In this document: piece by piece, positions 7,051 through 23,317 of the stretch
How positions within the stretch are numbered: the stretch's first letter is position 1
Layout of the letters: each line of letters begins with the position of its first letter
DNA from: a virus
DNA length: 64,000 nucleotides
Virus record (IMG/VR): IMGVR_UViG_3300032246_002821
Coordinates: 1-64,000 of that record
Reading direction: 5' to 3' (one strand)
Position numbers and translations under genes: made by a program
The notes under the pieces: model-generated
Seen by the model: the letters and a program-made list of their open reading frames with translations, nothing else
Told to the model about the DNA's origin: nothing
The model's database searches: none

Positions 7051-7296
7051 TGGATAACCAGACAGTAGCACTAGTTTTTTTTGCTATCTGGGGTTATTTG
7101 TTTATAGAAGAATTTATTAGTTATTTTTTGGGTCACTGATATGATAAAAATTATTAAAAAACATATAGATAATGATATAAAAGAAATTCAAGATGCGTGG
7201 AACAATATGGACACATTTAGTCACGTGTTAGTTATATTGTTTGTGACACTTATATTCATGACCACCGATATGATAATGCACAGGATCCACTTCTGA
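7050..7296 (+). CDS. Two tiny membrane ORFs (7050-7139, 29 aa; 7141-7296, 51 aa)
   Basis: Translationally coupled ORFs, each with one hydrophobic stretch. Confidence 0.4.
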
Positions 7297-7775
7297 TGGA
7301 TATCGCAGAACTCGTCAATAAGTTTGGTTTTCCCATCATCGCAGCAGGGGGTATGGGATACATCATCTATACCATCTGGATATGGGCCACTGTGGAGATT
7401 AAACCTGTATTAAGCGAAGCAAATACCACACTGATAGCACTGATCGACCGCATACGTATGCTGGACAATGATCTGATCAGATTGAACCAGAAATTAAACA
7501 TAGTGCTACAGTTGCGTGGCAAGCAGATCGAAAGTGATAGACACTTGGAAGATGTCAGAAACTCCAGTGAAGCACAGAAGAAAGAACTGCAGGCTGCTGC
7601 TGAACAGAGACAGGCCGCTGAAGAGTTGGCACATCAACACACCGTGGAAGTGAAACCCAACGGCACCGTCGAAGTCACAGAAAAAAACGGAATAGATACT
7701 GTTAAAGTGAGTGTCTCACCTCAAGAAAACAAGGAAAAAGTCAATGGCACAACCAATAAACGAAACCCAAGCTAA
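7296..7775 (+). CDS. Single-TM coiled-coil membrane protein (GFPI motif, YvrJ-like)
   Basis: VNKFGFPIIAAGGMGYII...LIDRIRMLDNDLIRL. Confidence 0.65.
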   Translation: MDIAELVNKFGFPIIAAGGMGYIIYTIWIWATVEIKPVLSEANTTLIALIDRIRMLDNDLIRLNQKLNIVLQLRGKQIESDRHLEDVRNSSEAQKKELQAAAEQRQAAEELAHQHTVEVKPNGTVEVTEKNGIDTVKVSVSPQENKEKVNGTTNKRNPS

Positions 7776-8019
7776 AGATGTAGCTGATGCTAGATCAAAA
7801 CAACATGAGCTGCTTCACGGCAGTGACAAAACCGCTGCTCATTTCATATATTGGTTCAGTTGGTTCTGGAGTGCCGTGAGTGCATTTTATTTCTTTGCGG
7901 TGACTTTCGTACCCATGCCCAAGGACAGCCAACATTTTGCAGATATCATTTTGGGTTTCCTCTTGGGTACGGCTGTGGCCACGATCATAGGTTACTTCTT
8001 CGGCAACAGCAAGGAGTGA
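7744..8019 (+). CDS. Putative holin-like 2-TM protein
   Basis: Two TM segments ending ILGFLLGTAVATIIGYFFGNS, a YFFG-S type holin-like terminus; likely start MAQP at 7744. Confidence 0.5.
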   Translation: MAQPINETQAKDVADARSKQHELLHGSDKTAAHFIYWFSWFWSAVSAFYFFAVTFVPMPKDSQHFADIILGFLLGTAVATIIGYFFGNSKE

Positions 8020-8156
8020 TGATGGGCGGAAATTTCGGTAACATACACGATTTATGGGCTTTTGGATATCGCTTACCCATCAATGATGCCATATTCCTGG
8101 GCACAATGGCAGCACTGCTACTCGTGGCACTTATATGCGTAGCTTTGAAAATATAA
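8019..8156 (+). CDS. Small membrane protein
   Basis: TGATG coupling; MMGGNFG...AIFLGTMAALLLVALICVALKI. Confidence 0.45.
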   Translation: MMGGNFGNIHDLWAFGYRLPINDAIFLGTMAALLLVALICVALKI

Positions 8157-8174
8157 TAGTTAATAAATACTTGT

Positions 8175-8600
8175 ATGGCAATACAGGATATGGATCCAGA
8201 AAAAGCATTAAAAACTGGAGAAAAATGGGGTAAGACACTTGCCTCAGCAATCTTCGACGTGACTGACGTGTTGCGTGACGGCAAGAACATGAAGGCTGCC
8301 GCTAATGCTAAGATGAAACAACAAAATGCTATGACTGCTGCAAACAATGCTGTGATCAAAGCTAAAAACGAAGCCTACCTTAAACAAAAGCAAGAAGAAG
8401 CGTTCATGAAAATGAGCCACAGCGAGCGCGAAGCCTATAAGAAAATAATGAAAGAACAACGCATTGCTAGCACAGTGAAACAGGCACAGCAGGATGAGAT
8501 GCTGGGCGTTGGTCATTTGATGCTGATAATATTGGGCGTGGCGACCGTGGCGGTGGCTGCTTTCTTCGGTGCAGTGGCATTTGGTGTGATCCACAGATAA
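8175..8600 (+). CDS. Coiled-coil protein with a C-terminal TM anchor
   Basis: 141-aa ORF; ATAAATA at 8163; hydrophobic C-terminus. Confidence 0.65.
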   Translation: MAIQDMDPEKALKTGEKWGKTLASAIFDVTDVLRDGKNMKAAANAKMKQQNAMTAANNAVIKAKNEAYLKQKQEEAFMKMSHSEREAYKKIMKEQRIASTVKQAQQDEMLGVGHLMLIILGVATVAVAAFFGAVAFGVIHR

Positions 8601-8622
8601 GTAATCTAAAAGGATCAACAAA

Positions 8623-9222
8623 ATGGCACTAGGAGACGCAATTCTAAAACAACTGAGTAAAAAAGCAGACCAAGTGGGCGATGCTCCCACAGGAGGTCTC
8701 AAGAGCAAAGCAGCATTCATCATCAGTATATTCGCTGCTATCTACAGCTTTGATGCTTTCATAGGCAGCACACTCAGCAGCCGCATCCTGAACGAAACAA
8801 TACATCTCAACGACGTTTACAGCTTCTATCAGGCCAAGAGTATCAAACAGAGCCTGTATCAGATGGCAGCAGATGATCTGGAAATGGTATTGGAAGACAA
8901 GAATATGGCGGCTGGCCCTCGTGAGCAACTCACAGCCAGACTGAACAAATACAAAGCAGCAGTGGCCAGATATGAATCGGATCCTGCTAGTGGTGAAGGC
9001 AAGAAAGAATTGTTGGCTTCAGCCAAACAGATAGAAGCAGATCGAGATCGTGCTAAAAAACAAGCACCCTGGATAGGCATTGCTGGCAGTGTGATGCAGA
9101 TCAGTATAGTTTTGGTCACAGCTAGTATGCTCAGTGCAGGTATGCTTATGTTCTGGGCAGGCATAGCAGCTCAAGCAGCAGCTATAGCAATGATGGCACA
9201 AGGTTTATTTTTGTTCTTTTGA
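8623..9222 (+). CDS. DUF4337-like membrane protein
   Basis: AAFIISIFAAI TM, YSFYQAKSIKQ motif, coiled coil, then two C-terminal TMs. Confidence 0.7.
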   Translation: MALGDAILKQLSKKADQVGDAPTGGLKSKAAFIISIFAAIYSFDAFIGSTLSSRILNETIHLNDVYSFYQAKSIKQSLYQMAADDLEMVLEDKNMAAGPREQLTARLNKYKAAVARYESDPASGEGKKELLASAKQIEADRDRAKKQAPWIGIAGSVMQISIVLVTASMLSAGMLMFWAGIAAQAAAIAMMAQGLFLFF

Positions 9223-9300: not shown

Positions 9301-9864
9301 TCAACAATCACTGATAAATGCTTTTAACTGCTTGATGCAATCATCGTGTTGCATTATCTCAGCGTGGTTAGCAGCTATCTCATGAACAGCGCCAGCACTC
9401 CAGCCACGCTGACTAGTAAGACTAACAACCCCATCATTCTCATCGAACATATAAGGGTTAAAACCGCGTGTAGTGATTATATGCTGCACTGGCATAGGAT
9501 AGGCCTGGTAGTGCAAATCCATGATGAACCTGCCGTTTTTCTTCAATTCCCTAATGAAACTGCTGCGGCTCATATATTGCTGAGCCATGCTAACATCCAG
9601 ACCATCCAGTGGACTGGCGATCGTTGTAATGCTTTGCACCTGATGGTGTCCAGCTAAAAACAATGCTATCATACCGCCCATGCTGTGACCTATCACGTGG
9701 CAAGGTATTGTCACGGAGTCTATGGCGCGGTTACAGACTTGTTGAAAGTCATTTATATCTTGACTGTAGTCGAACATTTGCCAACTATGGCTCTTAATCT
9801 TGGCCCTAGCATAGTTAAAGATTGTGGGGGTGCTGAATGCACCGTGGATAGCTAATATCTTCAT
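9301..9864 (-). CDS. Alpha/beta hydrolase (lipase/esterase)
   Basis: IHGAFS oxyanion loop, GHSMGG nucleophile elbow, NDGVV, and NHAEI catalytic His. Confidence 0.85.
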   Translation of the reverse strand: MKILAIHGAFSTPTIFNYARAKIKSHSWQMFDYSQDINDFQQVCNRAIDSVTIPCHVIGHSMGGMIALFLAGHHQVQSITTIASPLDGLDVSMAQQYMSRSSFIRELKKNGRFIMDLHYQAYPMPVQHIITTRGFNPYMFDENDGVVSLTSQRGWSAGAVHEIAANHAEIMQHDDCIKQLKAFISDC

Positions 9865-10739
9865 TTTTTACTTCCGCAGTATATCAAACATTCTTCTCTG
9901 ATCTGCCCTGTCTCTATTTCTTGTGCTATGTCTGCATCTGTTATCTGTAAATTTTTAATGAAACAACAGGTTATCAGCTGCCCTTTGAAATTGACGTACA
10001 CACTGGGCAAGTTCAGATGCATACAATTTTCTGGATGTAATGTGTTATTCTTATTGTCTTCTATATTACTGACTTTGCCTTTGTGGCGTCCGAACTTTTC
10101 TTCCAAGGACCATGGTTTAATTTCTATAGGTTCGCCGGTCTTGTGGTGCCGGGGCACATTACGATAGCGAACATTTTTTACCAGATAAAAGTTTTTAAAT
10201 CCCATCTGTTTGCTTATTTTGTAAGCATCTTTGATCTGATGTTCATTGTGAGCAAAGGGCAGGAATTGCCATTCAGCACAACCGCCTGCATCAATGAAGG
10301 CCTGGGCATTGTCTATTATTTTATGGAAGTTAGTATTCTGTCTATAGATGGCGTGTGTGTCTGCCAGCCCATCTATACCAAAAATAATCTTGTGTTGATG
10401 ATCTTTTAATTTCACACCCAATTGGCGCCACCAATTGGTGGTTTTTAAACTGCCATTTGTGTGTATCTGTATCATCAGGTTTTTGCCCAGGACCAGATCT
10501 ATGGTATCATCTATATTTTTACTGGCGATGCAATCTCCAAAATTGCCACAGAAAAACACATTGGTTAAATTGGGTAGTTGATTTAAAACTTCTGTTAGCC
10601 GTGGGATAGGTAAATCGGCTATCTGCAGACCAGGTATCACGCCATAACCGTCATTGTTCCTGGGGCAGGCTATGCAGCTGGCATTGCATCTGCTGGTTAA
10701 TTCTATGTGTAACCATTTGACCGTGGCTAGATTGATCAT
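9861..10739 (-). CDS. Radical SAM / SPASM-twitch protein
   Basis: ELTSRCNASCIACPRN (CxxxCxxC), CGNFGD, HTNG, GIDG; likely ATG 10739 overlaps the cyclase stop (ATGA). Confidence 0.85.
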   Translation of the reverse strand: MINLATVKWLHIELTSRCNASCIACPRNNDGYGVIPGLQIADLPIPRLTEVLNQLPNLTNVFFCGNFGDCIASKNIDDTIDLVLGKNLMIQIHTNGSLKTTNWWRQLGVKLKDHQHKIIFGIDGLADTHAIYRQNTNFHKIIDNAQAFIDAGGCAEWQFLPFAHNEHQIKDAYKISKQMGFKNFYLVKNVRYRNVPRHHKTGEPIEIKPWSLEEKFGRHKGKVSNIEDNKNNTLHPENCMHLNLPSVYVNFKGQLITCCFIKNLQITDADIAQEIETGQIREECLIYCGSKK

Positions 10740-12820
10740 TTTGTGTTTGTGCGGAATACTCCGTCCCAATCTGCGCCAGGTGGATTCTTTATATAATCGG
10801 CACAACGTTCGATCCACATCTCATAATAATGATCCATCTGACCATTAAATGCGCCTATTAGATCCCTACTCATATTCTTAGCGACCGTGAATCTTTGTGC
10901 CTTGTATGCTTTCATCATAGTCACATGATTGATCTTATCCTGATTCCAATTGGGTTTATCAGCACCTTCAGTGTTTAGTACCGTGAAGATGTCCACGCCT
11001 TCTTTCTTGCCCTTAACCGCCAAGCAGTCCAAGGGGAGCGTGAAGAAATCCGTTTTGACATATTCGTTAGTTAGAGGACCAATGACCATAGCCACGTGAT
11101 AAGGCTTAGACTGCCCTTCGAGACGGCTTGCGAGATTAACGCTATCGCCCAAGCAAGTGTAGTCAAAACGCTGCTCACTGCCCATATTACCAACAACGAC
11201 GACCCCGGTATTAATGCCCAGACCCATACCAAAAGGAGGAATACCTTCCGCAGTGACTTCGGCATTGAACGCAGCAAGGCTGTCCAACATTTCCAAGGCC
11301 GTTCTAACGGCGTTCTTCGCGTGTTCTTTATCATCCAGCGGAGCGTTCCAGAATGCCATCTGAGCATCACCGATGTACTTGTCCAGTGTTCCTTCATTGT
11401 CGATGATTTTCCTTGTCATTGCTGTCATGTAGCGGTTCATGATCTTAGTTAATCCTTGGACGTCTTTGCCATAATGCTCACTGATGGTAGTAAAGCCACG
11501 CACGTCAGTGAACATGATGCTTAGTTCTCTGCTGTCTCCTCCCAGCCTGAGCAGGTCTGGATTCTGTTGCAGTTTTTCCACCATCTTGGGACTCAGGTAA
11601 GTGCCAAACTGTTTCTTTATCTGTTGTTTTTGTCTAAATTCTCGAACAAAATTGTTAAAAACACATTGGAAAAATACAAGACTACCAGCGACCAGAAGAT
11701 AGCTGGCATCCAGGAGATAATTTCCATTATCGAATAGGCTAATGTGTACATATATGACCCCTCCTATTAATGTAGCGTACAGAGGTAATGTGGTTTTAAT
11801 ACCAGCACGTGGTACTATCAAGACGAGCAAAATGCTCAATAAAGCCAATGCTGCTAATTCTGCTAGATCTGCCCAGGCTGGGCGACTTATAGTTGTGCCG
11901 CTAATAAGAGTCTGTAATGCCTGCGCTTGCAGATCGTGTGGATAAATTTCGCCCCGGGGAGTGCCTATGATATTACCCAAACCCTCAGCAGTTAGTCCCA
12001 CTATCACTATCTTATCTGATAGATCCAAGGTGCTTTCACGAGTGATCACATCTATGGCTTCCACACGTTCGAATTTGGTGTTCTGGCTCAACCAGATGCG
12101 ACCATTGTTGTCTGTGTTTATGGTGGGAAACTGTGGTATGCGTACCGCTTCTATGCCAGCATCGCCAGTCTTGATCTGATAACTGGGATCTCCTGTGGCC
12201 ACACGGATTATCTCGAGCGGAAAGCTGGGATATAATTCTCCAGCCAGTCTGACTATCATGGGCATACGGCGTACAACACCATCTATTTCTGGTGTTGTGG
12301 CAACTACCCCCACACCGTCCGCGGCTTTGGCCAATTCAGGAATTGGACTGACCCCGCCGCGCCAGCTGAATGTCCAGGGTGCGGGATCTGCGCCTATCTT
12401 GGCCACACCACGGCGCACAGCATCTGGTTGTTGGCTTTTGATACTGACTGCTTGGCTAATCACTACACCTTGATCCAGCACACTTGCCAAGGGATCATCA
12501 CCACCCAATCTATCTGGTTCGGCGAACAGTATGTTCATAGCGATTACGCCGGCATTGGCCTGGCGCAATCTGCCCACCAATTCAGCAAACGCATCGCGAC
12601 GTGGCGGCCACTGGCCCCAACTTTTGAGGGTTTTTTCACCTATGTCTATCAATACAATATCTTTGCTGACCTGTTGTGGCTGACTGGTCATCAGGTAATC
12701 GAAATCTTTCAATCTAAGTGTTTTAACCAGGCTGGGATCTGCATATCGCACAAACAGCAATGCTAAGGCCAAGATGATCACAGCGCCAGTGCCAGTGATC
12801 CAGTTAATGTATTTTTCCAT
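10736..12820 (-). CDS. CHASE2-domain membrane class III adenylate cyclase
   Basis: N-terminal TM, CHASE2 (IDIGEKTLKSWGQWPPRR, EIDGVVRR), three TMs, IMFTDVRGFT, LDKYIGDAQMAFW, GINTG, FDYTCLGDSVNLASRLEG. Confidence 0.95.
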   Translation of the reverse strand: MEKYINWITGTGAVIILALALLFVRYADPSLVKTLRLKDFDYLMTSQPQQVSKDIVLIDIGEKTLKSWGQWPPRRDAFAELVGRLRQANAGVIAMNILFAEPDRLGGDDPLASVLDQGVVISQAVSIKSQQPDAVRRGVAKIGADPAPWTFSWRGGVSPIPELAKAADGVGVVATTPEIDGVVRRMPMIVRLAGELYPSFPLEIIRVATGDPSYQIKTGDAGIEAVRIPQFPTINTDNNGRIWLSQNTKFERVEAIDVITRESTLDLSDKIVIVGLTAEGLGNIIGTPRGEIYPHDLQAQALQTLISGTTISRPAWADLAELAALALLSILLVLIVPRAGIKTTLPLYATLIGGVIYVHISLFDNGNYLLDASYLLVAGSLVFFQCVFNNFVREFRQKQQIKKQFGTYLSPKMVEKLQQNPDLLRLGGDSRELSIMFTDVRGFTTISEHYGKDVQGLTKIMNRYMTAMTRKIIDNEGTLDKYIGDAQMAFWNAPLDDKEHAKNAVRTALEMLDSLAAFNAEVTAEGIPPFGMGLGINTGVVVVGNMGSEQRFDYTCLGDSVNLASRLEGQSKPYHVAMVIGPLTNEYVKTDFFTLPLDCLAVKGKKEGVDIFTVLNTEGADKPNWNQDKINHVTMMKAYKAQRFTVAKNMSRDLIGAFNGQMDHYYEMWIERCADYIKNPPGADWDGVFRTNTK

Positions 12821-12850
12821 ACTGATCCCCTCGATCTTTTACTTATTATA

Positions 12851-13375
12851 TCAACGTTTTGTGTAAGTGTATCCTGAGCAGGGGGGTGTCAAACACTGGA
12901 TACTCATGCTGCTGGCATCTGGTGTTAATGCATTATCCTGCAGAGCATTAGCTGTGATGCCTGAGCCGCTCAGATTAAACACAAAGCTCTTGGGTGCTGA
13001 ACCAGCTTGTTGTATCACAGCTGAGTTGTTGTTATTGCTGGTGGTCTTATCCAGATTGATGGCAGCAGTGTGGTTGCCTGATCCGGTCTGGAATATGGTC
13101 AGTATATTGTTATTGTTATTGGGAGCGATACTAGTGATAAAATTAGCTCCTGATTGTCCAGCTGGAGGTGTGCCAATGAATGCCATATGGGCACCAGTGC
13201 CTTCCTGTATGATGGCTAACTGATTGTTGTTGCCCTGATTGAGCACTATGGCTGTCTTGCTATCACTATCTTTCTGGTTGACGGTTATATTATTAAGATC
13301 TCCCACTTGGTCGATATAAACAGTATCAGCAGCATAAACTGGGGTTATAATCGCCAGTAACCATAATCGTTTCAT
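12851..13375 (-). CDS. Curlin-repeat secreted protein (CsgB-like)
   Basis: Signal peptide (VYA/ADT) and repeats IDQVGDLNNITVNQ, LNQGNNNQLAIIQEG, IFQTGSGNHTAAI. Confidence 0.75.
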   Translation of the reverse strand: MKRLWLLAIITPVYAADTVYIDQVGDLNNITVNQKDSDSKTAIVLNQGNNNQLAIIQEGTGAHMAFIGTPPAGQSGANFITSIAPNNNNNILTIFQTGSGNHTAAINLDKTTSNNNNSAVIQQAGSAPKSFVFNLSGSGITANALQDNALTPDASSMSIQCLTPPCSGYTYTKR

Positions 13376-14493
13376 TTGCTCTGCCTTATGGTTATGGTGC
13401 TGCCACCTGGTTTATTGACCTGTTGTAGTATGGGCAAACCGTCCTGATAAATGTTTATCTGTGCGCTGCTGTCCTTGTCCACTATGACTTGAGCGAAGTG
13501 ACTGGGGGCTGCGCGATACAGGTTAAGGCTGTAGTCTTCCACATAGTATTTGAGACCTTGTACTTTGTTGGGTTTATATCTGGGCAACATGGGATCGTCC
13601 TGTTCAGCCAGCGCATTATCCAATAATCCAGCGTTCATGAGATCGATAATGTTTTCCAGGAATGAAGAATCCAGATAGTTTTGTGCCAGTTTGCCAGTTG
13701 CTTCCGCTAGCAGATCCACATTGAGTGCATCGTATCTCAATAAATCTTTATCCAGCTCATTGCGATCTAATATGTTTTTGCCAGTCTCATCGTGGGTGGC
13801 GTGTTTGGGTTTGGTCAATATCAACATATTGCTTATCTGTGCATCTGTCAGTTGCAATATGGTGGGCTTGGCAGGATTGCCTTCCCTGCTAACTGTCTGA
13901 GTGCTCTGGAACATCTTGTCCAACCACACCGTGCCCATATCTGTTGTGACACTTATTTTACCCACTTTGCAATCTTTTTCCAGGCTTTTGTAACCCACTG
14001 GGCAACTGGGCAACAGAACAATTAGGCTACGGCCCAGCTCATCCACTGTCATACTGAAGTCCGTGCCACGCACACCCACAGTAGCAGTGGGTGTTTCTAT
14101 ACTCACAGACTGTGGATTAGCTTTGGCTATTTGGCCTGATGCGAATTTGGCTGTGCCCAGGGCCATCTTGAGTCCCACTTTGCCAGCATCACCTTTGGCT
14201 GGATCATACACAAAGCTGTCTATCACAAGTTTACTCTGTTCGGTTATTTTCACAGTGCTGTTGTCTTGAAAGGTGATGCTGACTTTGCTGTTGGCTGTGA
14301 CCACAGCATCATTCTGCTCCACGCCTGAATCTTTTGCGCTGGGAATCACTTGTTTGTCGCGTTGAATTTCAGTAGGACCAGTCTGTTCTGTTACAGTACC
14401 GGCCGCCGACCAAACATCAGTTGCCTGAACGCACAGTAATGCTGTTGTTACTGCCAACGCTCTTGATATTGACTGTTGAATCCACTGTGCCAC
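13372..14493 (-). CDS. FecR-domain exported protein
   Basis: GTG start with AGGAG SD; FQDNSTVKITEQSKLVID and ETPTATVGVRGTDF FecR motifs. Confidence 0.85.
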   Translation of the reverse strand: MAQWIQQSISRALAVTTALLCVQATDVWSAAGTVTEQTGPTEIQRDKQVIPSAKDSGVEQNDAVVTANSKVSITFQDNSTVKITEQSKLVIDSFVYDPAKGDAGKVGLKMALGTAKFASGQIAKANPQSVSIETPTATVGVRGTDFSMTVDELGRSLIVLLPSCPVGYKSLEKDCKVGKISVTTDMGTVWLDKMFQSTQTVSREGNPAKPTILQLTDAQISNMLILTKPKHATHDETGKNILDRNELDKDLLRYDALNVDLLAEATGKLAQNYLDSSFLENIIDLMNAGLLDNALAEQDDPMLPRYKPNKVQGLKYYVEDYSLNLYRAAPSHFAQVIVDKDSSAQINIYQDGLPILQQVNKPGGSTITIRQSK

Positions 14494-15103
14494 TCTGAGT
14501 GACTCCTATTGTGTTGCTGCCGCCTGTTACATCTACTGTCGCATCGAATCCGTTTAAGCCAGCTGTGCCGGTTTGGCTCACAGTGATGGCATTGCCATTA
14601 CCGCCAGTGCTTGTGATACGAGCTCTTGCTCCCAGTAGATTGGTTGTTGAACTTGTTATTCCCACTGTGTTGTTATCACCAGTGGCATCCACTGTGGCTG
14701 TGCTCTTGGCGCCAGCTGTGACATTAACTGTATTGGTATTACCATTTATATTAGCTGTTATTATAGTGTCTGTACAAGCAGTTGTGGGCGCAGCACCGCA
14801 ACTGGCATTGACAGTGTTGAAACTGCCAGTGACATTGCTGGTCAGTTGAGCACCATTGCCCTGTATATTGAACACGCTGTTGTTATTACTGCCTATCTGT
14901 GTTATGCTTACCAGCTGGCTGTTGCCACGAAAGATCGTTTTATTAGTTTCGTCTCCCACCACGTTGTTGCTACCTGTCTGTGTCACATCTATCGTACTGC
15001 TACTGCCTATCTGATCGATGTATACTGTATTCTGACTTTGAGCGAACACCGGAGTGGTGGCCATTAGCGATAGTGCTAGTAACAGTTTCATAAACTGTTT
15101 CAT
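14417..15103 (-). CDS. Curlin-repeat secreted protein (CsgA-like)
   Basis: Signal peptide (VFA/QS); Asn/Gly/Thr/Gln beta-solenoid repeats (IDQIGSSSTIDVTQTGSNN, ITQIGSNN, VSQTG, VTQSG). Confidence 0.8.
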   Translation of the reverse strand: MKQFMKLLLALSLMATTPVFAQSQNTVYIDQIGSSSTIDVTQTGSNNVVGDETNKTIFRGNSQLVSITQIGSNNNSVFNIQGNGAQLTSNVTGSFNTVNASCGAAPTTACTDTIITANINGNTNTVNVTAGAKSTATVDATGDNNTVGITSSTTNLLGARARITSTGGNGNAITVSQTGTAGLNGFDATVDVTGGSNTIGVTQSGTVDSTVNIKSVGSNNSITVRSGN

Positions 15104-15115
15104 AGCCTAGATACC

Positions 15116-15961
15116 TCATTTTTTATCCGTCTTTCGATTCGCTGCCGCGAGTTCTTCTGCTGTAAGCGGAGCGTGTCTCCACAACCCCTTGACTATACCT
15201 TGTTTGATTAAATCCACCACTGCTGCCTCGATCGCAATTCGCACAGCGTATGTGGTGGGTTCGTTAATTGTGACACCAGCTTCAAATTCCACAGCTTTGG
15301 TGCCAGCATCGATAAATTTCATTAGATTAGCACTGGTGCCTGCTGAGTAAACAGTCTTGCTGGCTCCAGAACTTAATAATACTTCGCCAGTGTGTACACT
15401 GACCAGTCTGATGATGATGGTTACCTCATCAGTGCGATACTGAGTGTTGCCATCTATGCCCAGGAATCTGGCGCCGATACCGCCTGATCCCACATTACTA
15501 TCATAACCAATGACACCGCCCTGCAACATTATACCAGCCACCAACATGGGTGCCAGTGGTTTGGCATTTTGTCCTTCATAGGTCTCACGCTGGTTGCGGA
15601 TCAGCTGACGCTCTTTTATCAAGTCGTCCAGTCCCACACGCTCCACAGGTTTAAACCAGGTGCCAGTGCCAGCATCTTGCAGGGCTTTGATCAGGAACAC
15701 TTCTGCACCCTGGGTGACAGCACTGCTAAAAGTGCTGAATTTGTCATTAGGTTTGCGCTGGCCAGTCTTGTCAGTGAAGCTGTACACAGCTACCACTATG
15801 GGAGGACCGTCTGGCTTACGCAAACCTGGCAGTTCTGCTAATCTGGGTTTGCTGATGATTTCAGGCATATCGTTGGGTTCCACGCTGGTGGGCACTTTAC
15901 CCACCAAACTGGTGCAACCTGACAGTGCCAGCAATAATATCAGCCCTATATTCTTAATCAA
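15116..15961 (-). CDS. csgG: Curli secretion channel CsgG (lipoprotein)
   Basis: Lipobox LSGC, AVYSFTDKTGQRK, STFSSAVTQGAEVFLIKAL, WFKPVERVGLDDLIKERQLIR. Confidence 0.93.
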   Translation of the reverse strand: MIKNIGLILLLALSGCTSLVGKVPTSVEPNDMPEIISKPRLAELPGLRKPDGPPIVVAVYSFTDKTGQRKPNDKFSTFSSAVTQGAEVFLIKALQDAGTGTWFKPVERVGLDDLIKERQLIRNQRETYEGQNAKPLAPMLVAGIMLQGGVIGYDSNVGSGGIGARFLGIDGNTQYRTDEVTIIIRLVSVHTGEVLLSSGASKTVYSAGTSANLMKFIDAGTKAVEFEAGVTINEPTTYAVRIAIEAAVVDLIKQGIVKGLWRHAPLTAEELAAANRKTDKK

Positions 15962-16404
15962 AATTTGAAACTCCCGATGGGAACACTGATCTCAGTACGG
16001 TTACCAGTGGGATCGATCAGTGTCAATTTGATCATATTAGTTGTTGCATCTTTTATCCAACTGATGTTAGTGCCTTCGAAGTCCATAGAACCAGAGGTGG
16101 CACCATCGGAAAACATAGCATTGCTCATCTGTAGACTCAGCTGGGCATAGATACGTGATTCCAGATTGTTCAAGAATTTATTTAGATTGGTGTTCTTGGC
16201 AGCAGTTGCTATGGCATCCAGTGCTGCTCGCTGTTCCTGCTTAATAGCTTGTTTGCGATTAAATTCCAGATTCTCGATAGTCAAGGCGTGACTGCTGAAT
16301 CCTTCGCCGCTGAAGCTGGGATTTTTATAGCCAAAAACCATTTCACTCGTCCACGCAGGACCAGAAATCATCAAAATTACAACAAAAGTCATAAATTTAT
16401 GCAT
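15958..16404 (-). CDS. csgF: Curli assembly component CsgF
   Basis: Signal peptide, then SEMVFGYKNPSFSG (mature CsgF N-terminal F-x-NP-x-FGG-like motif); LESRIYAQLS; adjacent to csgG. Confidence 0.85.
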   Translation of the reverse strand: MHKFMTFVVILMISGPAWTSEMVFGYKNPSFSGEGFSSHALTIENLEFNRKQAIKQEQRAALDAIATAAKNTNLNKFLNNLESRIYAQLSLQMSNAMFSDGATSGSMDFEGTNISWIKDATTNMIKLTLIDPTGNRTEISVPIGSFKF

Positions 16405-16419
16405 AAAACTCTCCAGAAG

Positions 16420-16426
16420 TATTTAT
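16420..16426 (-). promoter_or_regulatory. T4-late-like promoter (ATAAATA) of the curli/cyclase operon
   Basis: GATAAATAC just upstream of the csgF start; the same motif recurs before many structural genes. Confidence 0.55.
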
Positions 16427-16466
16427 CTATAGCGCATTTTGATTATGTTTGCATAGTAAATAACCT

Positions 16467-17609
16467 ATGTGGAAAATCTCTTGCCAATATCCCAACTGGT
16501 GTTTCGTAGCCTACGATCAAGAAAAATTATGGGAGATAGGCTACGTCATGAGTTTCTTAGACAGTGTGGACAAGAAGAACCTATACCTGTTTTTCATAGA
16601 TCAAAATAGCTTCTATTCAGCAGACTTTCCCTGGGATATCTTATCAGACAGACTGGCATACGCGAAGGAAAATTCCTTGCATTTCAAAATCATATATCTC
16701 AATATAGGGGAAGCACCTTGTTATCGTTTCGATCTGAAACAATTATGTGATGAGATAAATGATAAAAATATAGTGCCCTATGATGACCAGATACTGTTCA
16801 GCGCCGGTATAAGATATTTCGACGATCCCATTAGAGTAGCCACCAGTTATAATATTGCTTTAAGAAAACAGATCTGGTCGGGCTATGATCACACTCAACC
16901 ACCCACTCATCATTTCATAAGTCTGTGTAGGATTCTACGAAAGCAAAGAGCTGTAGCTAGTGTGGAAATACTGGACAGGGATCTTTTGAAATATGGATAC
17001 ATGAGCGTGGGCAGTGCCTATGCCAGTGTCGACGATCCTGGGCTGTCTTATTGCAGGGATAATTTCGAATTTATACCAGACAGGTACAAACACCTTATGC
17101 CAATGTATCTGGACGGTTATATAGGAGACGGTGTGCCTGCCGCCAGCATCTGTTATCTAAGCCAGAACGATCCCAGGGTATGCAGTGCGTTCGTACACGT
17201 GGTCATGGAGACCAGTTACGATTTTCCTTATGCCCAACAAGGGGGTGCCTGGTTGGTGCCCCTGTTAAGCGAAAAGACTTTCAAACCATTGGTATTCGGC
17301 CAGATACCATTATTCTTGTGCCATAAAGATCAGCTGAAATACCTGAGAGAGATGGGTTTCGATCTGTTCGATGATGTCATAGATCACAGCTATGATCACG
17401 AACCCGATCCTGCCTTGCGTATAATTAAAGTTGTGGATCAATTGGAAAAAATCTGTCGTGACTGGACTCTGGAACAGATGCAACGATATAAAAAAGATAA
17501 CATCGGTCGTTTCACGAATAACAGGAACCGTTTCATAGAAATACTGGCGCTGGAACCTGATCTAATAGGCAAGCCCAGCTTTATTAAAGCCCTCAATAAT
17601 TCTCGATGA
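16467..17609 (+). CDS. Putative glycosyltransferase-like phage protein
   Basis: HVVMETSY...LSEKTFKPL...LREMGFDLFDDVIDHSYD, resembling GT10-like C-terminal signatures; function inferred. Confidence 0.45.
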   Translation: MWKISCQYPNWCFVAYDQEKLWEIGYVMSFLDSVDKKNLYLFFIDQNSFYSADFPWDILSDRLAYAKENSLHFKIIYLNIGEAPCYRFDLKQLCDEINDKNIVPYDDQILFSAGIRYFDDPIRVATSYNIALRKQIWSGYDHTQPPTHHFISLCRILRKQRAVASVEILDRDLLKYGYMSVGSAYASVDDPGLSYCRDNFEFIPDRYKHLMPMYLDGYIGDGVPAASICYLSQNDPRVCSAFVHVVMETSYDFPYAQQGGAWLVPLLSEKTFKPLVFGQIPLFLCHKDQLKYLREMGFDLFDDVIDHSYDHEPDPALRIIKVVDQLEKICRDWTLEQMQRYKKDNIGRFTNNRNRFIEILALEPDLIGKPSFIKALNNSR

Positions 17610-18234
17610 AAGGTTGATCTGACATATCCTGATACACATACCTGTCGAAAGGATCAGCCGTGGTCTGTCCCACGGGCATACTATTGAAACCCAATATGAT
17701 GCGATTTTCATTGGTACCGTTGGGATCGGTCTGGTGTTCCAACCAAGCAGGAAATATCACCAGGGTACCAGGCACGAATTCAGTGGAATGCCTGTGTGCT
17801 ATCAACATATTCCTGCCAGGCAATCTGGCAGGAACGATAATGTGGCTGGCTGCTGCCGGACTGTAGAATGTAGTACCACGTGTACCAGCTGCACCACTGA
17901 GATAATACACCCCAGCTAGGAAAGTGTTGCCGTGGATATGACGATGATGTCTGCCACCAGGTGGCTGTAGTGTGCTCCACAGACTGGTTATCTGGCATTT
18001 GGGTTGGTAACCCATCTGGCTCATGACCCATTCTGTTTGCAACTGGACGAATTCGGCAAAGCTCTTGAACAATGGTTCGTTGTGCAGTGTGGCTTTGCCG
18101 AATTTGATATGTGGTAAATCACGACCCCAATTGGCACTGTCGCTAGCATATTCTATGTACTGTTGTTTCAATTCATCGTGTTGGGGAAAATTGAATGTCC
18201 AGATAGGAATAGTGAAAGCATTAATCTGTGCCAT
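17593..18234 (-). CDS. 2OG-Fe(II) oxygenase (TIGR02466-like)
   Basis: HHRHIHGNTFLAGVYY, LVIFPAWLEH and RIILGFN motifs. Confidence 0.8.
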   Translation of the reverse strand: MAQINAFTIPIWTFNFPQHDELKQQYIEYASDSANWGRDLPHIKFGKATLHNEPLFKSFAEFVQLQTEWVMSQMGYQPKCQITSLWSTLQPPGGRHHRHIHGNTFLAGVYYLSGAAGTRGTTFYSPAAASHIIVPARLPGRNMLIAHRHSTEFVPGTLVIFPAWLEHQTDPNGTNENRIILGFNSMPVGQTTADPFDRYVYQDMSDQPFIENY

Positions 18235-18243
18235 TGGCTGTCC

Positions 18244-18972
18244 TTAATTTTCGATCTGTTGACCGTTGGGTCCGATATTTCCGGTCACACCTGTGCGGTC
18301 GAATATGACCACATCCTTGTTGGGCAGGAACTTGTACCACAGATGCTCGATATCTATGTAACCACCAGCATCCACACGGTCTTTCATGTGCTTGGTCATC
18401 GTTGTCAACAGTTGGATAAACTCAGGTATACGATTGGTACCCAGGCTGTACACACGCAACATATACTGCATATCAACACCAGTGATGCCAGGCGCGAATT
18501 GGCTCAGGTTGCGTTTGCTGACCACATACTTGTCGCCCACCACACCGCGCTGGTAATCGCCGATCCAGAAACGGTCTGTCAGTTTATATCTGCCACTGAC
18601 TTTAAACACACGATCGCAATCAGCAAACCAGCCCTGCTCCAGTGCCATCTCGAAAAAACCAGTGACCACCACCAGCTCTGTCATATTTTTTACCACATCC
18701 TGCACTGTGATATTTTCAGCTATCCAGTTGACTGTTTCATCTTGACTAAAGTCAACGAAATAATCCACGTGGCTCTGTAGTTCTGCTTTCACATCATCTG
18801 AGATAGCCGGCACACTGCAATCTGTCAGACAGATCACAGCATTGGGCACCCGTTCTCTGATGCTTTTGATTGTTTCCAGCGTCTGCGCCAGTCTTTCGTC
18901 GGGTTTATAAATGCTAAACTTGGCATTTACTGCGCTGGTTACCAATACACCATATTTGCGTTTTTTATTCAT
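18244..18972 (-). CDS. Hypothetical protein, possibly glycosyltransferase-related
   Basis: 242-aa ORF with RVFKVSGRY motif, coupled to the dehydratase. Confidence 0.5.
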   Translation of the reverse strand: MNKKRKYGVLVTSAVNAKFSIYKPDERLAQTLETIKSIRERVPNAVICLTDCSVPAISDDVKAELQSHVDYFVDFSQDETVNWIAENITVQDVVKNMTELVVVTGFFEMALEQGWFADCDRVFKVSGRYKLTDRFWIGDYQRGVVGDKYVVSKRNLSQFAPGITGVDMQYMLRVYSLGTNRIPEFIQLLTTMTKHMKDRVDAGGYIDIEHLWYKFLPNKDVVIFDRTGVTGNIGPNGQQIEN

Positions 18973-19999
18973 CTAGATCCAACCAATCTGTGCGTTTGAG
19001 AGTCCATTCCACCACTTGGCTGATGCGTTCTGTCAGCTCGATCTTGGGTTCCCAACCCATGCTACGCATCAGGTCTCCACTAAGTGCATATCTGAGATCG
19101 TGGCCCGGGCGGCTGCTGTGGAAGTCCATAAGTTCATAGTTCAGTGGCTTGCCCTGTGCATCAGCTATCAGCTGAGCCAGTTGCAGGTTATTGATCTCCT
19201 GCTTGCCTACCAGATTGAACTTGGGACATACCTTGGTGCCCATATCTGTGTAATGGCGTTCATCCACGTTGTTCAACAAGAACAACAGACCGTCGGCCAC
19301 ATCAGATGCGTGGATATAGAAGCGACTGCCAGGAATGGTCTTGGTGCGGTCGCTGTGTACAGTGATGGTCTCGCCATCGCGCACCTTGCGGATGCACATG
19401 GGGATATACTTCTCAGGATGCTGTCGTTGACCGAACACATTCATAGTATGTGTGATGATCACTGGCAACTTGTAGGTGTTCTCATAACACACTGCCAGTT
19501 CTTCTCCGCCCGCTTTGGTAGCTGAGTAGGGGTTACCCGAATTATAACGATCGTATTCGCCATAGTTCACGCCCACGGGTGCCGGACCAAAAACTTCGTC
19601 TGTGCTGAAGTACACAAAGCGTTCCAAGTCAGGCTGTTTGCGAGCAAATTCCAGGATGTTACAAGTGCCCACCACATTGTCCAGCACGAATTCCATGGGA
19701 TAGTCGATGCTGCGATCCACGTGGCTTCCTGCAGCCAGATGCAGTATGATGTCACATTTGCCGATGCGCTGAGCAGTGAGAGGATTGATCTCTGCACGAA
19801 GATCGTGGAACACGATCTTGACACGTTTGCGAGTTAGTGCATCGTGATCCTGCATAACATCGTGCAGTCGGTTTAGGTTGCCTGAAAAATCCAGACGATC
19901 CAGACTGATGATATTCCAGTCTGTGTGTTTAAGCAAGTGGTCGATTACGTGATGCGCGATAAAGCCAGCACCACCTGTTACCAATACATTTTTTGTCAT
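18965..19999 (-). CDS. rfbB: dTDP-glucose 4,6-dehydratase
   Basis: TGGAGFI, HLAAGSHVDRSI, STDEVFG, YSATK, QHPEK and RPGHDLRY motifs. Confidence 0.92.
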   Translation of the reverse strand: MTKNVLVTGGAGFIAHHVIDHLLKHTDWNIISLDRLDFSGNLNRLHDVMQDHDALTRKRVKIVFHDLRAEINPLTAQRIGKCDIILHLAAGSHVDRSIDYPMEFVLDNVVGTCNILEFARKQPDLERFVYFSTDEVFGPAPVGVNYGEYDRYNSGNPYSATKAGGEELAVCYENTYKLPVIITHTMNVFGQRQHPEKYIPMCIRKVRDGETITVHSDRTKTIPGSRFYIHASDVADGLLFLLNNVDERHYTDMGTKVCPKFNLVGKQEINNLQLAQLIADAQGKPLNYELMDFHSSRPGHDLRYALSGDLMRSMGWEPKIELTERISQVVEWTLKRTDWLDLDE

Positions 20000-20052
20000 A
20001 GTATCTCCGCTATTGTTGCTATTATATAGTGACTGCTGGCCTAATGCAATAA

Positions 20053-20897
20053 TTAATCGTAATCTTTGCGGCGTAAATGTGGCAGGCCACGATTATGGAT
20101 TATGCTGTATTTCATATGCAATGTGCTGTTGCTGTCGCTGGTCTTGGGCACCAATAGCAGGAAAAATTTACTGCGACTTATCCACTTGCGTTGCTGTTCC
20201 ACGTTGATTTTATTATGTGGTGGCCAGGGCTGAACGATGGTGAATTCTGGAACGGCTTCCACCAGTTCCAGAATATCTTCATAACTCATACAGGCCAGAT
20301 ATATGTTGTTGACATCAGGATAAGCCCTTTTGCTACTTACATCAGCCAACAATATTAATGTGTTACTGTCCATGTTCAATCTTAGGAATAAGCGGTTCAT
20401 AAAGATCGGCGTCCAATGGTCTTGTTATCTTGCTGGTTTTGTCATACAGGGCAAAACCGATTCCAGTACTGGAATGTTCGAAAGGATAGGTAACAAGCAG
20501 TACACGATTGCCATATCCTTGATCGTTCAGGATACGATTCAAACGGTTATACTGATGACGAATAGTAAATTCGCTAGTGCAATCCACAAGTTGACCCATT
20601 TTACACCTATCAATAAAGTTCGTGAGCAGGTACGACAACAGCGCCACAACGGTCCATCTGTTGCTGTTCAGTATCAGGCAGAGCATCTTCGGGAATCACG
20701 TACCAGCTGTCCACGTGTTCGTGAAGCATAGGCTTGTGCTTTTCCACCTTACAGGCCACCTGGTGCACCAGTCGTTCCAGCACACTGGGATCGGTCACAG
20801 GTTTACGTCCCAGCCGCAACACATATTCACGTGTGGCGAAATCGCTGAAATGATCTTCCATCAATGCAAGTACTCGAGTTTTAACAATCAGTTTCAT
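20053..20897 (-). CDS. Three small hypothetical early genes (20053-20400, 20363-20686, 20610-20897; starts uncertain)
   Basis: Chained minus-strand ORFs downstream of the promoter at 20922-20949. Confidence 0.5.
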
Positions 20898-20921
20898 CGG
20901 GTTACCTCCTGTTTATCATTA

Positions 20922-20949
20922 CTTATAGCATACTGCGACAGGGTGTCAA
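20922..20949 (-). promoter_or_regulatory. Sigma70-type early promoter
   Basis: TTGACA-N16-TATAAG with TGC before the -10. Confidence 0.7.
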
Positions 20950-20955
20950 GACAAT

Positions 20956-20977
20956 AAAAGGGCCTTGCGGCCCTTTT
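20956..20977. terminator. Intrinsic terminator with GCAA loop
   Basis: AAAAGGGCC-TTGC-GGCCCTTTT; identical 21-mer at 62421-62441. Confidence 0.85.
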
Positions 20978-20982
20978 AGGTA

Positions 20983-21429
20983 TTATTTTTTAGCCTTGGG
21001 CTTCCTGGCCTTTTTGACCTTTTCTTTAACAGCTTTGACTTCGGCAACAATTTCATTTACCATTTTTTCTGGTAATGCTTCAGCTGCTTTGATCTCTGCC
21101 TTTACTTCTGCCACAACTGCTTCAGCTTTCACTTCAACAGCAGCAACTTCTGCCTTTACTTCTGCCACAACTGCTTCAGCTTTCACTTCAACAGCAGCAA
21201 CTTCTGCCTTTACTTCTGCCACAACTGCTTCAGCTTTCACTTCCACAGCAGCAACTTCTGCTTTGACTTCTGCCACAACTGCTTCCGCTTTTGCTTCCAC
21301 AACTTTAACATCTGCCTTTACTTCGTCCGCGACCTTCTGCACTTCTGCTTCGATCTTAGCCACAGTGGCGGCAGGTACTTCGGTAGTTTTTGGCGTAATG
21401 CCAAATAGATTTTTTAACCAATTAAACAT
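20983..21429 (-). CDS. Ala/Val/Glu/Lys repeat protein with a basic tail
   Basis: AVVAEVKAEVAAVEVKAE repeats; C-terminus KVKKARKPKAKK. Confidence 0.75.
   Translation of the reverse strand: MFNWLKNLFGITPKTTEVPAATVAKIEAEVQKVADEVKADVKVVEAKAEAVVAEVKAEVAAVEVKAEAVVAEVKAEVAAVEVKAEAVVAEVKAEVAAVEVKAEAVVAEVKAEIKAAEALPEKMVNEIVAEVKAVKEKVKKARKPKAKK
21095..21300 (-). repeat. 54-bp coding tandem repeat (3 full copies plus a partial)
   Basis: Units begin at 21095, 21149, 21203 and 21257; each encodes 18 aa. Confidence 0.9.
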
Positions 21430-21475
21430 CGATGTCTCCTAGTTTAACTATTTACTACCGTCGGACACTAATGAA

Positions 21476-21655
21476 TTATTTTGAAGGTACTAGGGTCTTC
21501 ATTGCATTGGTGATGGCAGTGTTGGTGACTTTGGTCAGGTCCACCTGGACGTCCACGATCTTGGTGAATACTTCCTTGATTTCCTTGTTGGGCACATAAG
21601 CCAGCACTACATTAGCGGTATTACGGTAAAATTCAGTGATTGATTCGATATTCAT
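21476..21655 (-). CDS. Phasin-like small protein (59 aa)
   Basis: AAGGAG SD; MNIESITEFYRNTANVVLAYVPNKEIKEVFTKIVDVQVDLTKVTNTAITNAMKTLVPSK, amphipathic helical; below the ORF-track cutoff. Confidence 0.5.
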   Translation of the reverse strand: MNIESITEFYRNTANVVLAYVPNKEIKEVFTKIVDVQVDLTKVTNTAITNAMKTLVPSK

Positions 21656-21698
21656 TATTAGTTCTCCTTTGTGTTATGATTTATATTACACGATATTT

Positions 21699-21730
21699 AT
21701 ATGCGGTGCAATATTTTTTTGTGCAGTGCA
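21699..21730 (-). promoter_or_regulatory. Two PhaR-type boxes overlapping a late promoter
   Basis: TGCACTGCACAA (21719-21730) and TGCACCGCATAT (21699-21710); ATAAATA at 21694-21700. Confidence 0.55.
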
Positions 21731-21737
21731 ACGATTT

Positions 21738-22775
21738 TTATGCGTTATTTTTTAATTGCTGATATGCATAAAGCGCAAAGCTGGCCAAGTTCTTGCCCTT
21801 GCTTTCGCACTGTATGTCGAATTTGTCGGCGAAAGTAAGAGCATAGTCATTGACAGCACTATTCCACATCATATCGCTGTGTGCTCTGAGTGCTGCTTTC
21901 TTCAGTCCAGATTCCAGCAGATCAGGCATCACCGGCCGCACAGACTCCAGAACCACTCTAGATTCTCGGAGTAGGTCTTCGCGGCTGACGCTGTAATGTA
22001 GTACAGGCCGTACACCGCGCCAGCTGTCAAGAATCCTAGCAACACGTACATCATCAGGCGCGAGATAATCTGCATCGCGAATCCAATGATGATGCAAGTC
22101 CAGTACAGTAGGTACAACGTCACTGAGACTGAGACAATCGTCCAGACCATATTTGTACTCCTCGTTCTCCACTGTGATGCAGTTGCGAGCTTCTGGGCTC
22201 AGCCTATTTAAGGCTGCACGAATGCCGTCAGGACCACGTCGGCCGCTGATGTGTACATTACACTTGAAGTCCTGGAATGTCTTACCGTAGCCCATCCACC
22301 TGATGATGTCAGTGTGGTATTCGAATTCTTCTATGCTACGGTTAACAATTTCGTCATTGTCACTCGCAAGCACCACAAACTGACCAGGGTGCATACTAAG
22401 CCTAACGTCAAGAGCTTTAGCAGTGGCACCCACTGTACTGAATGCCTTCTCACAATAATTACGTACATCCGGACGCTGCCAGAAATAACTGTAAGTAGGT
22501 TCAGTGTAGACAGGCAAAAGATTGCTGCTAAGACGCACCATTCTAAGACCGGCATCTTGTTCTCCCACTTTCTTGATCAATTTGTGTACAGCTTCTGTGT
22601 TGTACACCATGATGTCCCACAGCTTCTGTTCAGCAACATCACGTGGCTGACGGTTAAGCCAGGCCACAGTTGTGCCTAGGTCTGTGTATTGCTTGGCGTC
22701 ATCCTTGGGTTTAAGCCCATTGACCTGATCCGGATGGTCAAGCCATTTGCAGCAAAACCCTATACGATTTGTCAT
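21738..22775 (-). CDS. uvsE: UV damage endonuclease (UVDE)
   Basis: RIGFCCK, MVRLSS, RLSMHPGQF, ITVENEE, LDLHHHW, HYSVSR and LRAHSD motifs. Confidence 0.92.
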   Translation of the reverse strand: MTNRIGFCCKWLDHPDQVNGLKPKDDAKQYTDLGTTVAWLNRQPRDVAEQKLWDIMVYNTEAVHKLIKKVGEQDAGLRMVRLSSNLLPVYTEPTYSYFWQRPDVRNYCEKAFSTVGATAKALDVRLSMHPGQFVVLASDNDEIVNRSIEEFEYHTDIIRWMGYGKTFQDFKCNVHISGRRGPDGIRAALNRLSPEARNCITVENEEYKYGLDDCLSLSDVVPTVLDLHHHWIRDADYLAPDDVRVARILDSWRGVRPVLHYSVSREDLLRESRVVLESVRPVMPDLLESGLKKAALRAHSDMMWNSAVNDYALTFADKFDIQCESKGKNLASFALYAYQQLKNNA

Positions 22776-23089: not shown

Positions 23090-23092
23090 GGA

Positions 23093-23287: not shown

Positions 23288-23317
23288 AATACTAATATAC
23301 AGCAGATATAACGATTG

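Follow-up and report, generated by a model that had tools for sequence, protein, structure and literature searches.

A published viral curli block with FecR-domain and CHASE2 adenylate cyclase genes in a further phage lineage

The DNA analysed here (the window) is a stretch of 64,000 nucleotides (nt), positions 1 to 64,000 of the IMG/VR virus record IMGVR_UViG_3300032246_002821. On its minus strand, from 16404 to 9301, lie eight consecutive open reading frames (ORFs) for CsgF, CsgG, a first curlin-repeat protein (curlin A), a FecR-domain protein, a second curlin-repeat protein (curlin B), a CHASE2 adenylate cyclase, a putative radical S-adenosylmethionine (SAM) protein and a hydrolase. The block had been noticed in an earlier sequence-only reading of the window and its observation was confirmed. 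The first six genes, called the cassette below, form a viral curli block that is already published, and this copy belongs to a different phage lineage. The preferred reading of the cassette, to which an even chance is given, is a composite one: curlins would be exported, and the FecR protein would couple the state of export or of the fibre to cyclic AMP (cAMP) synthesis by the CHASE2 cyclase.

The eight genes, in their order along the minus strand, are:

15958..16404, minus strand: csgF, 148 amino acids (aa); Pfam CsgF over the full length (6.8e-14, 52.6 bits) and phrog_35372 (7.8e-50)
15116..15961, minus strand: csgG, a lipoprotein of 281 aa and predicted outer-membrane channel; Pfam CsgG (2.8e-51, 174 bits)
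14417..15103, minus strand: curlin A, 228 aa; Curlin_rpt in 5 stretches (2.8e-9, 37.2 bits)
13372..14493, minus strand: FecR-domain protein; Pfam FecR (1.6e-11, 44.9 bits); gene callers start it at 14457, which gives 361 aa
12851..13375, minus strand: curlin B, 174 aa, in the variable 'second curlin' slot; Curlin_rpt (3.3e-4)
10736..12820, minus strand: CHASE2 and class IIIb adenylate cyclase, 694 aa; Pfam CHASE2 (3.9e-45) and Guanylate_cyc (1.8e-19)
9861..10739, minus strand: putative radical SAM protein (SPASM/twitch-like), 292 aa, accessory; C-x3-C-x2-C and phrog_21308 (1.2e-24)
9301..9864, minus strand: small alpha/beta hydrolase, 187 aa, accessory; several Pfam Abhydrolase families

Domain searches with Pfam, PHROG and NCBIfam agree with the gene identities first given to the unit, and the spacing of the eight ORFs is that of a tightly coupled operon, as had been claimed. 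Start and stop codons overlap by 4 nt between csgF and csgG, FecR and curlin B, the cyclase and radical SAM genes, and the radical SAM and hydrolase genes. Gaps of 12 nt and 30 nt separate csgG from curlin A and curlin B from the cyclase, and the overlap of curlin A with FecR is 41-77 nt according to the start chosen. The 4-nt coupling to the cyclase stop indicates that the radical SAM gene starts at 10739 and not at 10817. Signal peptides begin CsgF, curlin A, curlin B and the FecR protein. The cassette genes are real and under purifying selection, with a ratio of nonsynonymous to synonymous substitutions (dN/dS) of 0.02-0.11 in all six core genes when compared with a near relative locus (L083), in which CsgG is 98% identical.

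The full record spans 182,953 bp at 46% GC and is 54% complete according to CheckV. It is probably about half of a jumbo-phage genome. An identical FecR protein occurs on a contig of 248,571 bp, and relatives occur on contigs of 330-380 kb. The large terminase (L177:17568-19154, minus strand) is closest to those of Pseudomonas phage PA5oct (54%), Sinorhizobium phage Phosso (51%) and Yersinia phage fHe-Yen9-04 (44%). Pfam families for T4 Gp23, the sheath and the portal were not found in the record, which is incomplete, and the control search for Gp23 and portal matched nowhere. Homologues of the gp32, gp33, gp59, tail-tube and baseplate proteins of Methylophilales phage Melnitz and Pelagibacter phage HTVC008M were likewise not found in the incomplete 183-kb record. 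A T4-like pelagimyophage identity was rejected, as neither T4 families nor cassette-flanking homologues were found in the incomplete record. The PA5oct-type terminase and the lack of detected T4 families together place this copy of the cassette in a jumbo-phage lineage outside the pelagiphages.

The sequence-only reading took csgG and csgF to be the only genes of the block known from phages. All of it, with FecR, the second curlin and the cyclase, had however been reported in a 2022 paper. In it Wittmers et al. 2022 (PMC9599517) gave the order csgF-csgG-CsgA/B-FecR-CsgA/B-adenylate cyclase in SAR11 phages of Podoviridae and Myoviridae, preceded by short 'HK' genes, with a global distribution, detection in metatranscriptomes and an estimated share of ~0.1% of assembled viral proteins. 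A curli cluster was also reported by Zaragoza-Solas et al. 2020 (PMC7029224). CHASE2 is mentioned neither in these two papers nor in Buchholz et al. 2022 (PMC9004378).

Genes gp014-019 of HTVC008M and gp99-104 of Melnitz are the same six genes in the same order, with proteins 37-47% identical, and in the Melnitz record the genes for FecR, curlin and cyclase are already annotated as such. At the DNA level, a blastn search of the cassette against 50,697 phage records returned no match. The viral type VIII secretion system of pelagiphages (HTVC008M, Melnitz and HTVC023P-type podophages) thus resembles the block of the window in gene set and order and in the presence of a small membrane-protein gene. 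It differs in that this small gene lies upstream in pelagiphages and convergent downstream here, where radical SAM and hydrolase genes are also coupled to the 3' end. The phage itself differs from pelagimyophages by its 46% GC, its PA5oct-type terminase (54%) and the absence of detected T4 families.

The secretion proteins are close to those of bacterial curli. The N-terminal CsgG-binding segment of CsgF, for which the pattern F-x-F-x-N-P-x-F-G-G was looked for, aligns to residues 7-37 of E. coli CsgF and keeps N-P-x-F. CsgG matches E. coli CsgG (3x2r/4q79) with 176 bits, and the Cys of its L-S-G-C lipobox is aligned. In the constriction loop F56 is kept, N55 is replaced by Thr and Y51 by Asn, and one residue is inserted. 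Curlin A carries Q-x-G-x-x-N rungs and a Cys pair, and is predicted from its sequence to be a secreted beta-solenoid subunit.

Curlin B passes the Pfam cut-off narrowly. Its Curlin_rpt score is 21.0 bits against a cut-off of 20.7 (4 stretches), and the NCBIfam CsgB model matches at 6.8e-6. The protein has curlin-like rungs and a C-terminal C-x4-C motif, and its AlphaFold2 (AF2) model is a regular all-beta repeat of 12 strands with a predicted local distance difference test (pLDDT) score of 80.7. Foldseek matches of this model are weak (E >0.3) and mostly beta-helix proteins, with CsgA at rank 42 and FapC at rank 23. In the viral loci the gene that intervenes between FecR and the cyclase is always curlin-like and very variable, from a mini-curlin of 88 aa in one locus (L004) to the 174 aa found here. 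In five other loci (L051, L062-L064 and L088) the second-curlin slot holds long proteins with a big extra N-terminal region before the curlin-like part. By eye only, these regions resemble carbohydrate-binding domains, as if a fibre subunit had swappable heads, and they suggest a surface role.

Like the bacterial system of E. coli, the phage block has a lipoprotein channel (CsgG), a cap with an N-terminal plug motif (CsgF) and two subunits with curlin repeats. It differs in having no CsgE, CsgC or CsgD, in a CsgG constriction that is only partly conserved, and in longer subunits predicted to be Cys-containing solenoids. Curli systems of the alphaproteobacterial type also lack CsgE and CsgD. 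In addition, a FecR-domain protein and a cyclase are embedded in the phage block, a combination without counterpart among the 71 bacterial loci surveyed (see below).

The cyclase consists of a transmembrane (TM) helix (residues 4-32), a CHASE2 domain, three TM helices (314-392), a cyclase domain (425-615) and a conserved tail of 80 aa. The hydrophobic segments 4-32 and 314-392 come from the hydropathy profile, and the Pfam CHASE2 match covers residues 18-333. Since one TM helix precedes CHASE2 and three follow it, the domain is placed in the periplasm. The sequence-only reading had described an intact adenylate-cyclase site with both metal-binding Asp residues, the Lys, the Thr and the N/R pair, and all of these are present and conserved in an alignment of 25 phage homologues (sharing 46-87% identity with the window protein): no homologue departs from D439, K481, D485 or R566, and at least 90% keep T555 and N562. 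When the protein is aligned with solved structures, CyaC among them, K481 takes the specificity position of Cya2 and IlaC, where the guanylate cyclase Cya2 has Glu and its adenylate-cyclase derivative has Lys. Together K481 and T555 give the signature of a class IIIb adenylate cyclase, a pattern that is established knowledge for the family. The protein is therefore predicted to be a membrane enzyme that makes cAMP. At least 585 relatives of the cyclase are present in IMG/VR.

The FecR-domain protein has at least 3,728 relatives of its type. In its AF2 model (mean pLDDT 74.5) the signal helix is followed by a beta-rich domain at 32-200 (pLDDT ~85), an acidic low-confidence linker at about 220-300 and a six-strand C-terminal domain at 314-371 (pLDDT 81-87). 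The FecR beta domain extends over about 30-215, and R142-G143-T144 within it is invariant. FecR-family regulators cleave themselves at a conserved G-T (PMC8144685), to which the phage R-G-T may correspond. The best fold matches are the C-terminal cell-surface signalling domain (CCSSD) of PupR (Z 15.9), the anti-sigma protein BDI_1681 (Z 14.3) and the RIN plug of MpIBP, 5IX9 (Z 10.8), after which the next match has Z 5.2. Residues 28-123 superpose on 5IX9 with a root-mean-square deviation of 2.2 over 73 of 76 residues at 20% identity, and 5IX9 is also the sole PDB sequence match of the FecR profile, at a marginal E of 0.11.

The likeness to FecR and PupR anti-sigma regulators is confined to the periplasmic fold. 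The phage protein has a signal peptide only, and since the cytoplasmic anti-sigma domain and TM anchor are missing it is called a FecR-domain protein and not a FecR regulator. Family scans of the cassette genes and most flanking ORFs found no extracytoplasmic function sigma factor, TonB-dependent transducer or anti-sigma domain. RIN is a periplasmic beta-sandwich of the Marinomonas ice adhesin (5IX9). It stays in the periplasm as a plug of the outer-membrane pore, which is TolC-like and too narrow for it, and the LapA retention module was modelled with RIN as template. RTX adhesins of the LapA and MpIBP type share with the phage protein a small beta-sandwich followed by a flexible segment. They differ in using a type I secretion system with a TolC-like pore, where the phage has CsgG, and the phage protein is Sec-exported.

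The C-terminal tail of the FecR protein weakly resembles a curlin repeat, which is suggestive only. The top PDB match of the tail profile is CsgA, at E 0.19 and below significance (177,635 sequences). An end-to-end alignment of the tail with the final curlin A rung comes from hhalign (P 0.0065, probability 5.8%). Pfam finds no Curlin_rpt in the C-terminus even at E 10, and with a profile built from 63 viral curlin A proteins the reversed FecR sequences score as high as the real ones. A curlin repeat is consequently not claimed for the tail, as the Pfam and reversed-control tests failed and the signals are sub-threshold. A search for longer fused forms (FecR-CHASE2 or FecR-curlin) found none at E 1e-8, which is weak evidence. 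Complex prediction for CHASE2 25-335 with FecR 30-235, with alignments, returned a score of 0.00 and is evidence neither way.

Conservation of gene order had been named beforehand as a point on which the proposal could fail, and the order held. The viral survey covered the 80 best cyclase loci and 11 loci found via CsgG. All 53 viral loci holding csgF, csgG, curlin A and FecR have them contiguous and co-oriented, and the cassette was found in every viral locus with sufficient flank as well as, in the same order, in HTVC008M and Melnitz. This order persists where identity falls to 35-45%, and in different phage families. The 68 loci with both FecR and the cyclase show more variety: the two genes share 4 nt in 17 of them, and in 39 they are separated by a single curlin-slot gene. 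In one relative (L073:2817-7900) about 5 kb of cargo, by eye metallophosphatase-, glycosyltransferase- and ATP-grasp-like, lies between the second curlin and the cyclase. The cassette thus tolerates insertions at this junction.

In bacteria the picture is different. The FecR alignment was searched against 185,579 species genomes, which yielded 9 contigs with the full cassette and 71 loci with FecR only. A CHASE2 gene stands beside FecR in 31 of these 71 loci, nearly always abutting it and mostly with a cyclase output, and csgG, csgF or curlin genes were found in none (0/71). For example, one Marinomonas locus (L161) encodes a FecR protein of 521 aa, a CHASE2 cyclase and a tetratricopeptide repeat (TPR) protein, and another locus (L129) has the order cyclase, TPR, FecR, FecR. 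In S. meliloti a FecR-domain protein, SMc02177, is encoded next to cyaD1, and the other Clr targets include a TPR protein; neither was needed for the CHASE2 cyclases to perceive the plant signal (PMC5498481). A Burkholderia biofilm operon has a LysM-FecR gene beside a CHASE2 histidine kinase (PMC5192318). As bacteria pair FecR with CHASE2 without curli, the phage block is a chimera of a curli secretion set and a FecR/CHASE2 pair. The sequence-only reading had proposed just such a joining, and the bacterial neighbours without curli, the S. meliloti cyaD1 locus among them (PMC5498481), speak for it.

The phage and bacterial pairs are alike in an exported FecR protein beside CHASE2, often with overlapping codons, and in a cyclase that runs TM, CHASE2, 3TM and class III domain. 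FecR partners in bacteria are longer (three scanned ORFs have ~450-520 aa), are often accompanied by a TPR protein and have no link to curli, and the phage protein has its own linker and small C-terminal beta domain. The nine full-cassette contigs (L094-L102) are filed in metagenome-assembled genomes (MAGs) of unrelated phyla, labelled Luteolibacter (Verrucomicrobia), Pirellulales (Planctomycetes), Bacteroidetes, Legionellales, Caulobacteraceae, an actinobacterium and Pelagibacter. They were not counted as evidence for a bacterial origin and are probably phage contigs binned into MAGs, the only support checked being that several carry the small membrane-protein gene phrog_18771, described below, beside the cassette. 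Such phage DNA could mislead inference of host or origin.

The radical SAM and hydrolase genes had been counted as members of the unit. They are present and joined to it by 4-nt overlaps, but they are not conserved parts of the module: both are local accessories and not core. L083 is the one surveyed viral locus with a radical SAM gene after the cyclase (49% identity), and the hydrolase is found near the cassette in few (L011, L077, L083, L084 and L092). The radical SAM ORF has the C-x3-C-x2-C motif and no Pfam match; its weak radical SAM/SPASM matches in NCBIfam are far under the cut-offs. The two radical SAM genes (L083:15148-16086 and window 9861-10739) are 49% identical even though the flanking genes are 82-98% identical, which points to very fast evolution or to replacement by a homologue. 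The hydrolase has a G-H-S-M-G nucleophile elbow and is without a signal peptide.

Two further features are linked to the cassette:

16420..16427, minus strand: GATAAATA, a motif resembling T4 late promoters, 15 nt ahead of the csgF start codon; ATAAATA core at 16420-16426
7296..7775, plus strand: small membrane protein phrog_18771, convergent to the eight genes; an additional gene linked to the cassette

Between the GATAAATA motif and the csgF ATG there is a GGAGAG Shine-Dalgarno sequence. The full 183-kb record has 39 ATAAATA sites, of which 23 are 8-45 nt ahead of the start of a same-strand ORF of at least 80 aa, against 80 of 851 (9.4%) for all other 7-mers of the same composition. This enrichment marks ATAAATA as a genuine gene-upstream motif of this phage, and it also occurs upstream of a tail-spike-like gene and a virion-protein-like gene. 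The motif had been called late-type from the sequence alone; its position upstream of genes is borne out by the computed enrichment, and its late timing is suggested by analogy with T4 alone.

The phrog_18771 protein begins with a TM helix that contains a G-F-P-I motif, and a long helical part follows. In 74 of 93 loci a homologue is encoded within 3 kb of the cassette; in 18 these genes abut csgF upstream on the same strand and in 54 they are convergent after the cyclase. The conserved N-terminal part is 60-79% identical across most loci, which exceeds most cassette proteins. Among the 50,697 phage records, homologues were found only in Melnitz (gp98) and HTVC008M (gp012), next to csgF. No Pfam family matches the protein, and its Atlas look-alikes are viral hypothetical proteins, with holin families weak (score 0.82). 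It probably corresponds to the short 'HK' of Wittmers et al., judging from where it lies and from its paralogy. An identity as a histidine kinase was set aside, given the missing Pfam family and the viral hypothetical look-alikes.

Between the cassette and phrog_18771, at 7711-9222 on the plus strand, the window encodes three further small membrane proteins: one with two TM helices, one anchored at its C-terminus and one of the DUF4337 type. A DUF4337 gene stands beside the cassette in eight other loci. On the other side a sugar-modification island at 17593-28004 (minus strand) adjoins the cassette and includes a 2-oxoglutarate-Fe(II) oxygenase, a nucleotide-sugar epimerase and a Nol-like carbamoyltransferase. 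A C-methyltransferase gene lies at 3100-4314 and a second radical SAM gene at 34674-35693.

In the composite reading the CsgG lipoprotein and its CsgF cap would form an outer-membrane channel, with the two Sec-exported curlin-repeat proteins as its cargo. This cargo would most likely assemble into beta-solenoid fibres or adhesive filaments outside the infected cell. The exported FecR-fold protein would partner a four-pass receptor whose periplasmic CHASE2 domain may control the cytoplasmic class IIIb cyclase. The FecR gene is wedged between the curlin genes, and the protein is therefore most likely at or near the CsgG channel, from where it would report curlin export or the state of the fibre to CHASE2. 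CHASE2 would then set cAMP synthesis, probably late in infection. The fold of the FecR domain adds support for the composite, as it is like domains that dock on outer-membrane channel proteins (PupR CCSSD and RIN). What was observed are the gene identities, the intact catalytic site, the signals for export, the purifying selection, the synteny and, in bacteria, the pairing of FecR with CHASE2. A relay from the state of fibre or pore through FecR to cAMP is pure inference, and so are the assembly of fibres, all contacts between the proteins, the nature of the signal, and the target and effect of cAMP. For the curlin-lined pore that the sequence-only reading also offered, nothing was found in its favour.

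Several observations weigh against this composite. The cyclase is separated from FecR by cargo, over more than 1.5 kb, in 8 of 68 loci and is on the opposite strand in 4 of 68, and some published modules are without it (Wittmers et al. 2022, PMC9599517). FecR, by contrast, always stays with the curli genes; the main partner of FecR may thus be the secretion system. In S. meliloti the FecR-domain neighbour of cyaD1 is not needed for perception of the plant signal (PMC5498481). No cNMP-binding (cyclic nucleotide-binding) domain (PF00027) and no CsgE (PF10627) was found in the 183-kb record, which is about half complete, and cells infected with Melnitz were not clumped (Buchholz et al. 2022, PMC9004378). 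Part of this favours a structural role of FecR in secretion, as a CsgE-like cap or adaptor or as a fibre anchor retained in the pore, with the cyclase as an optional and separate accessory. This explanation is unlikely on balance, though it is the most credible of the alternatives. Besides the missing CsgE and the contiguity of FecR with csgF, csgG and curlin A in 53 of 53 loci while the cyclase is displaced, inverted or missing (PMC9599517), it can draw on the likeness of FecR 28-123 to a LapA-type retention plug (Z 10.8), the sole PDB sequence match (E 0.11), and on the tail, with CsgA as best PDB match (E 0.19) and the hhalign fit to the last curlin A rung (P 0.0065). The curlin likeness of the tail is, however, under significance, with nothing in Pfam and reversed sequences scoring alike. 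The same type of FecR stands beside CHASE2 genes in bacteria that have no curli genes there, and in 17 of 68 phage loci FecR overlaps the start of the cyclase, both of which speak against this structural role. A more specific and distinctly improbable version of the FecR link is a tether through the pore: FecR would plug the periplasmic mouth of CsgG, its linker would thread the channel and its curlin-like end would join the fibre, so that load on the fibre or occupancy of the channel is transmitted mechanically through the outer membrane to the CHASE2 cyclase. If true, the phage would build a trans-envelope sensor that turns surface contact with a cell, a particle or a superinfecting phage into cAMP.

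Two other explanations are less likely than either the composite or a structural FecR. In one, which has very little probability, CsgG and CsgF are a gated envelope pore for lysis timing or small-molecule flux, with the small membrane proteins and cAMP in the circuit and the curlins as plugs or gates. A pore and lysis-timing role, pinholin- or secretin-like, was proposed for Melnitz by Buchholz et al. 2022 (PMC9004378), and the lack of clumping fits it. So do the linkage of phrog_18771 to the cassette (74/93) with its weak holin look-alikes (0.82), the further small membrane proteins at 7711-9222, including DUF4337, and the late-type motif upstream of the operon. Depolarisation of the inner membrane is, on the other hand, beyond CsgG, an outer-membrane channel of ~1 nm; a gate function does not easily account for two conserved curlin-repeat proteins, some of them with large extra N-terminal regions; and no endolysin or spanin was identified next to the cassette in the window. 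The curli genes and the FecR/cyclase pair could also be unrelated cargo, co-inherited in a hypervariable island, and this is just as improbable. The cassette does sit in a variable island rich in sugar-modification genes, some phages have cargo genes inserted within it, and its two halves are separate in bacteria. Mere co-inheritance is at odds with the interleaving of FecR between the curlin genes with overlapping stop and start codons, with an order kept to 35-45% identity across phage families, and with the similar purifying selection on all six genes.

The module is among the commoner accessory blocks of ocean phages, and through it an infected cell acquires genes for a secretion system and a second-messenger enzyme that known hosts such as SAR11 and OM43 do not have. 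As the copy in the window shows, pelagiphages are not its only carriers, and a jumbo-phage lineage has it too. From the comparison with bacteria, the question for the composite reading comes down to whether FecR links the curli channel to the CHASE2 cyclase or serves the channel alone. Either answer would bear on the FecR-CHASE2 pairs of bacteria, such as those of the Sinorhizobium CyaD1 locus and the Burkholderia biofilm operon.

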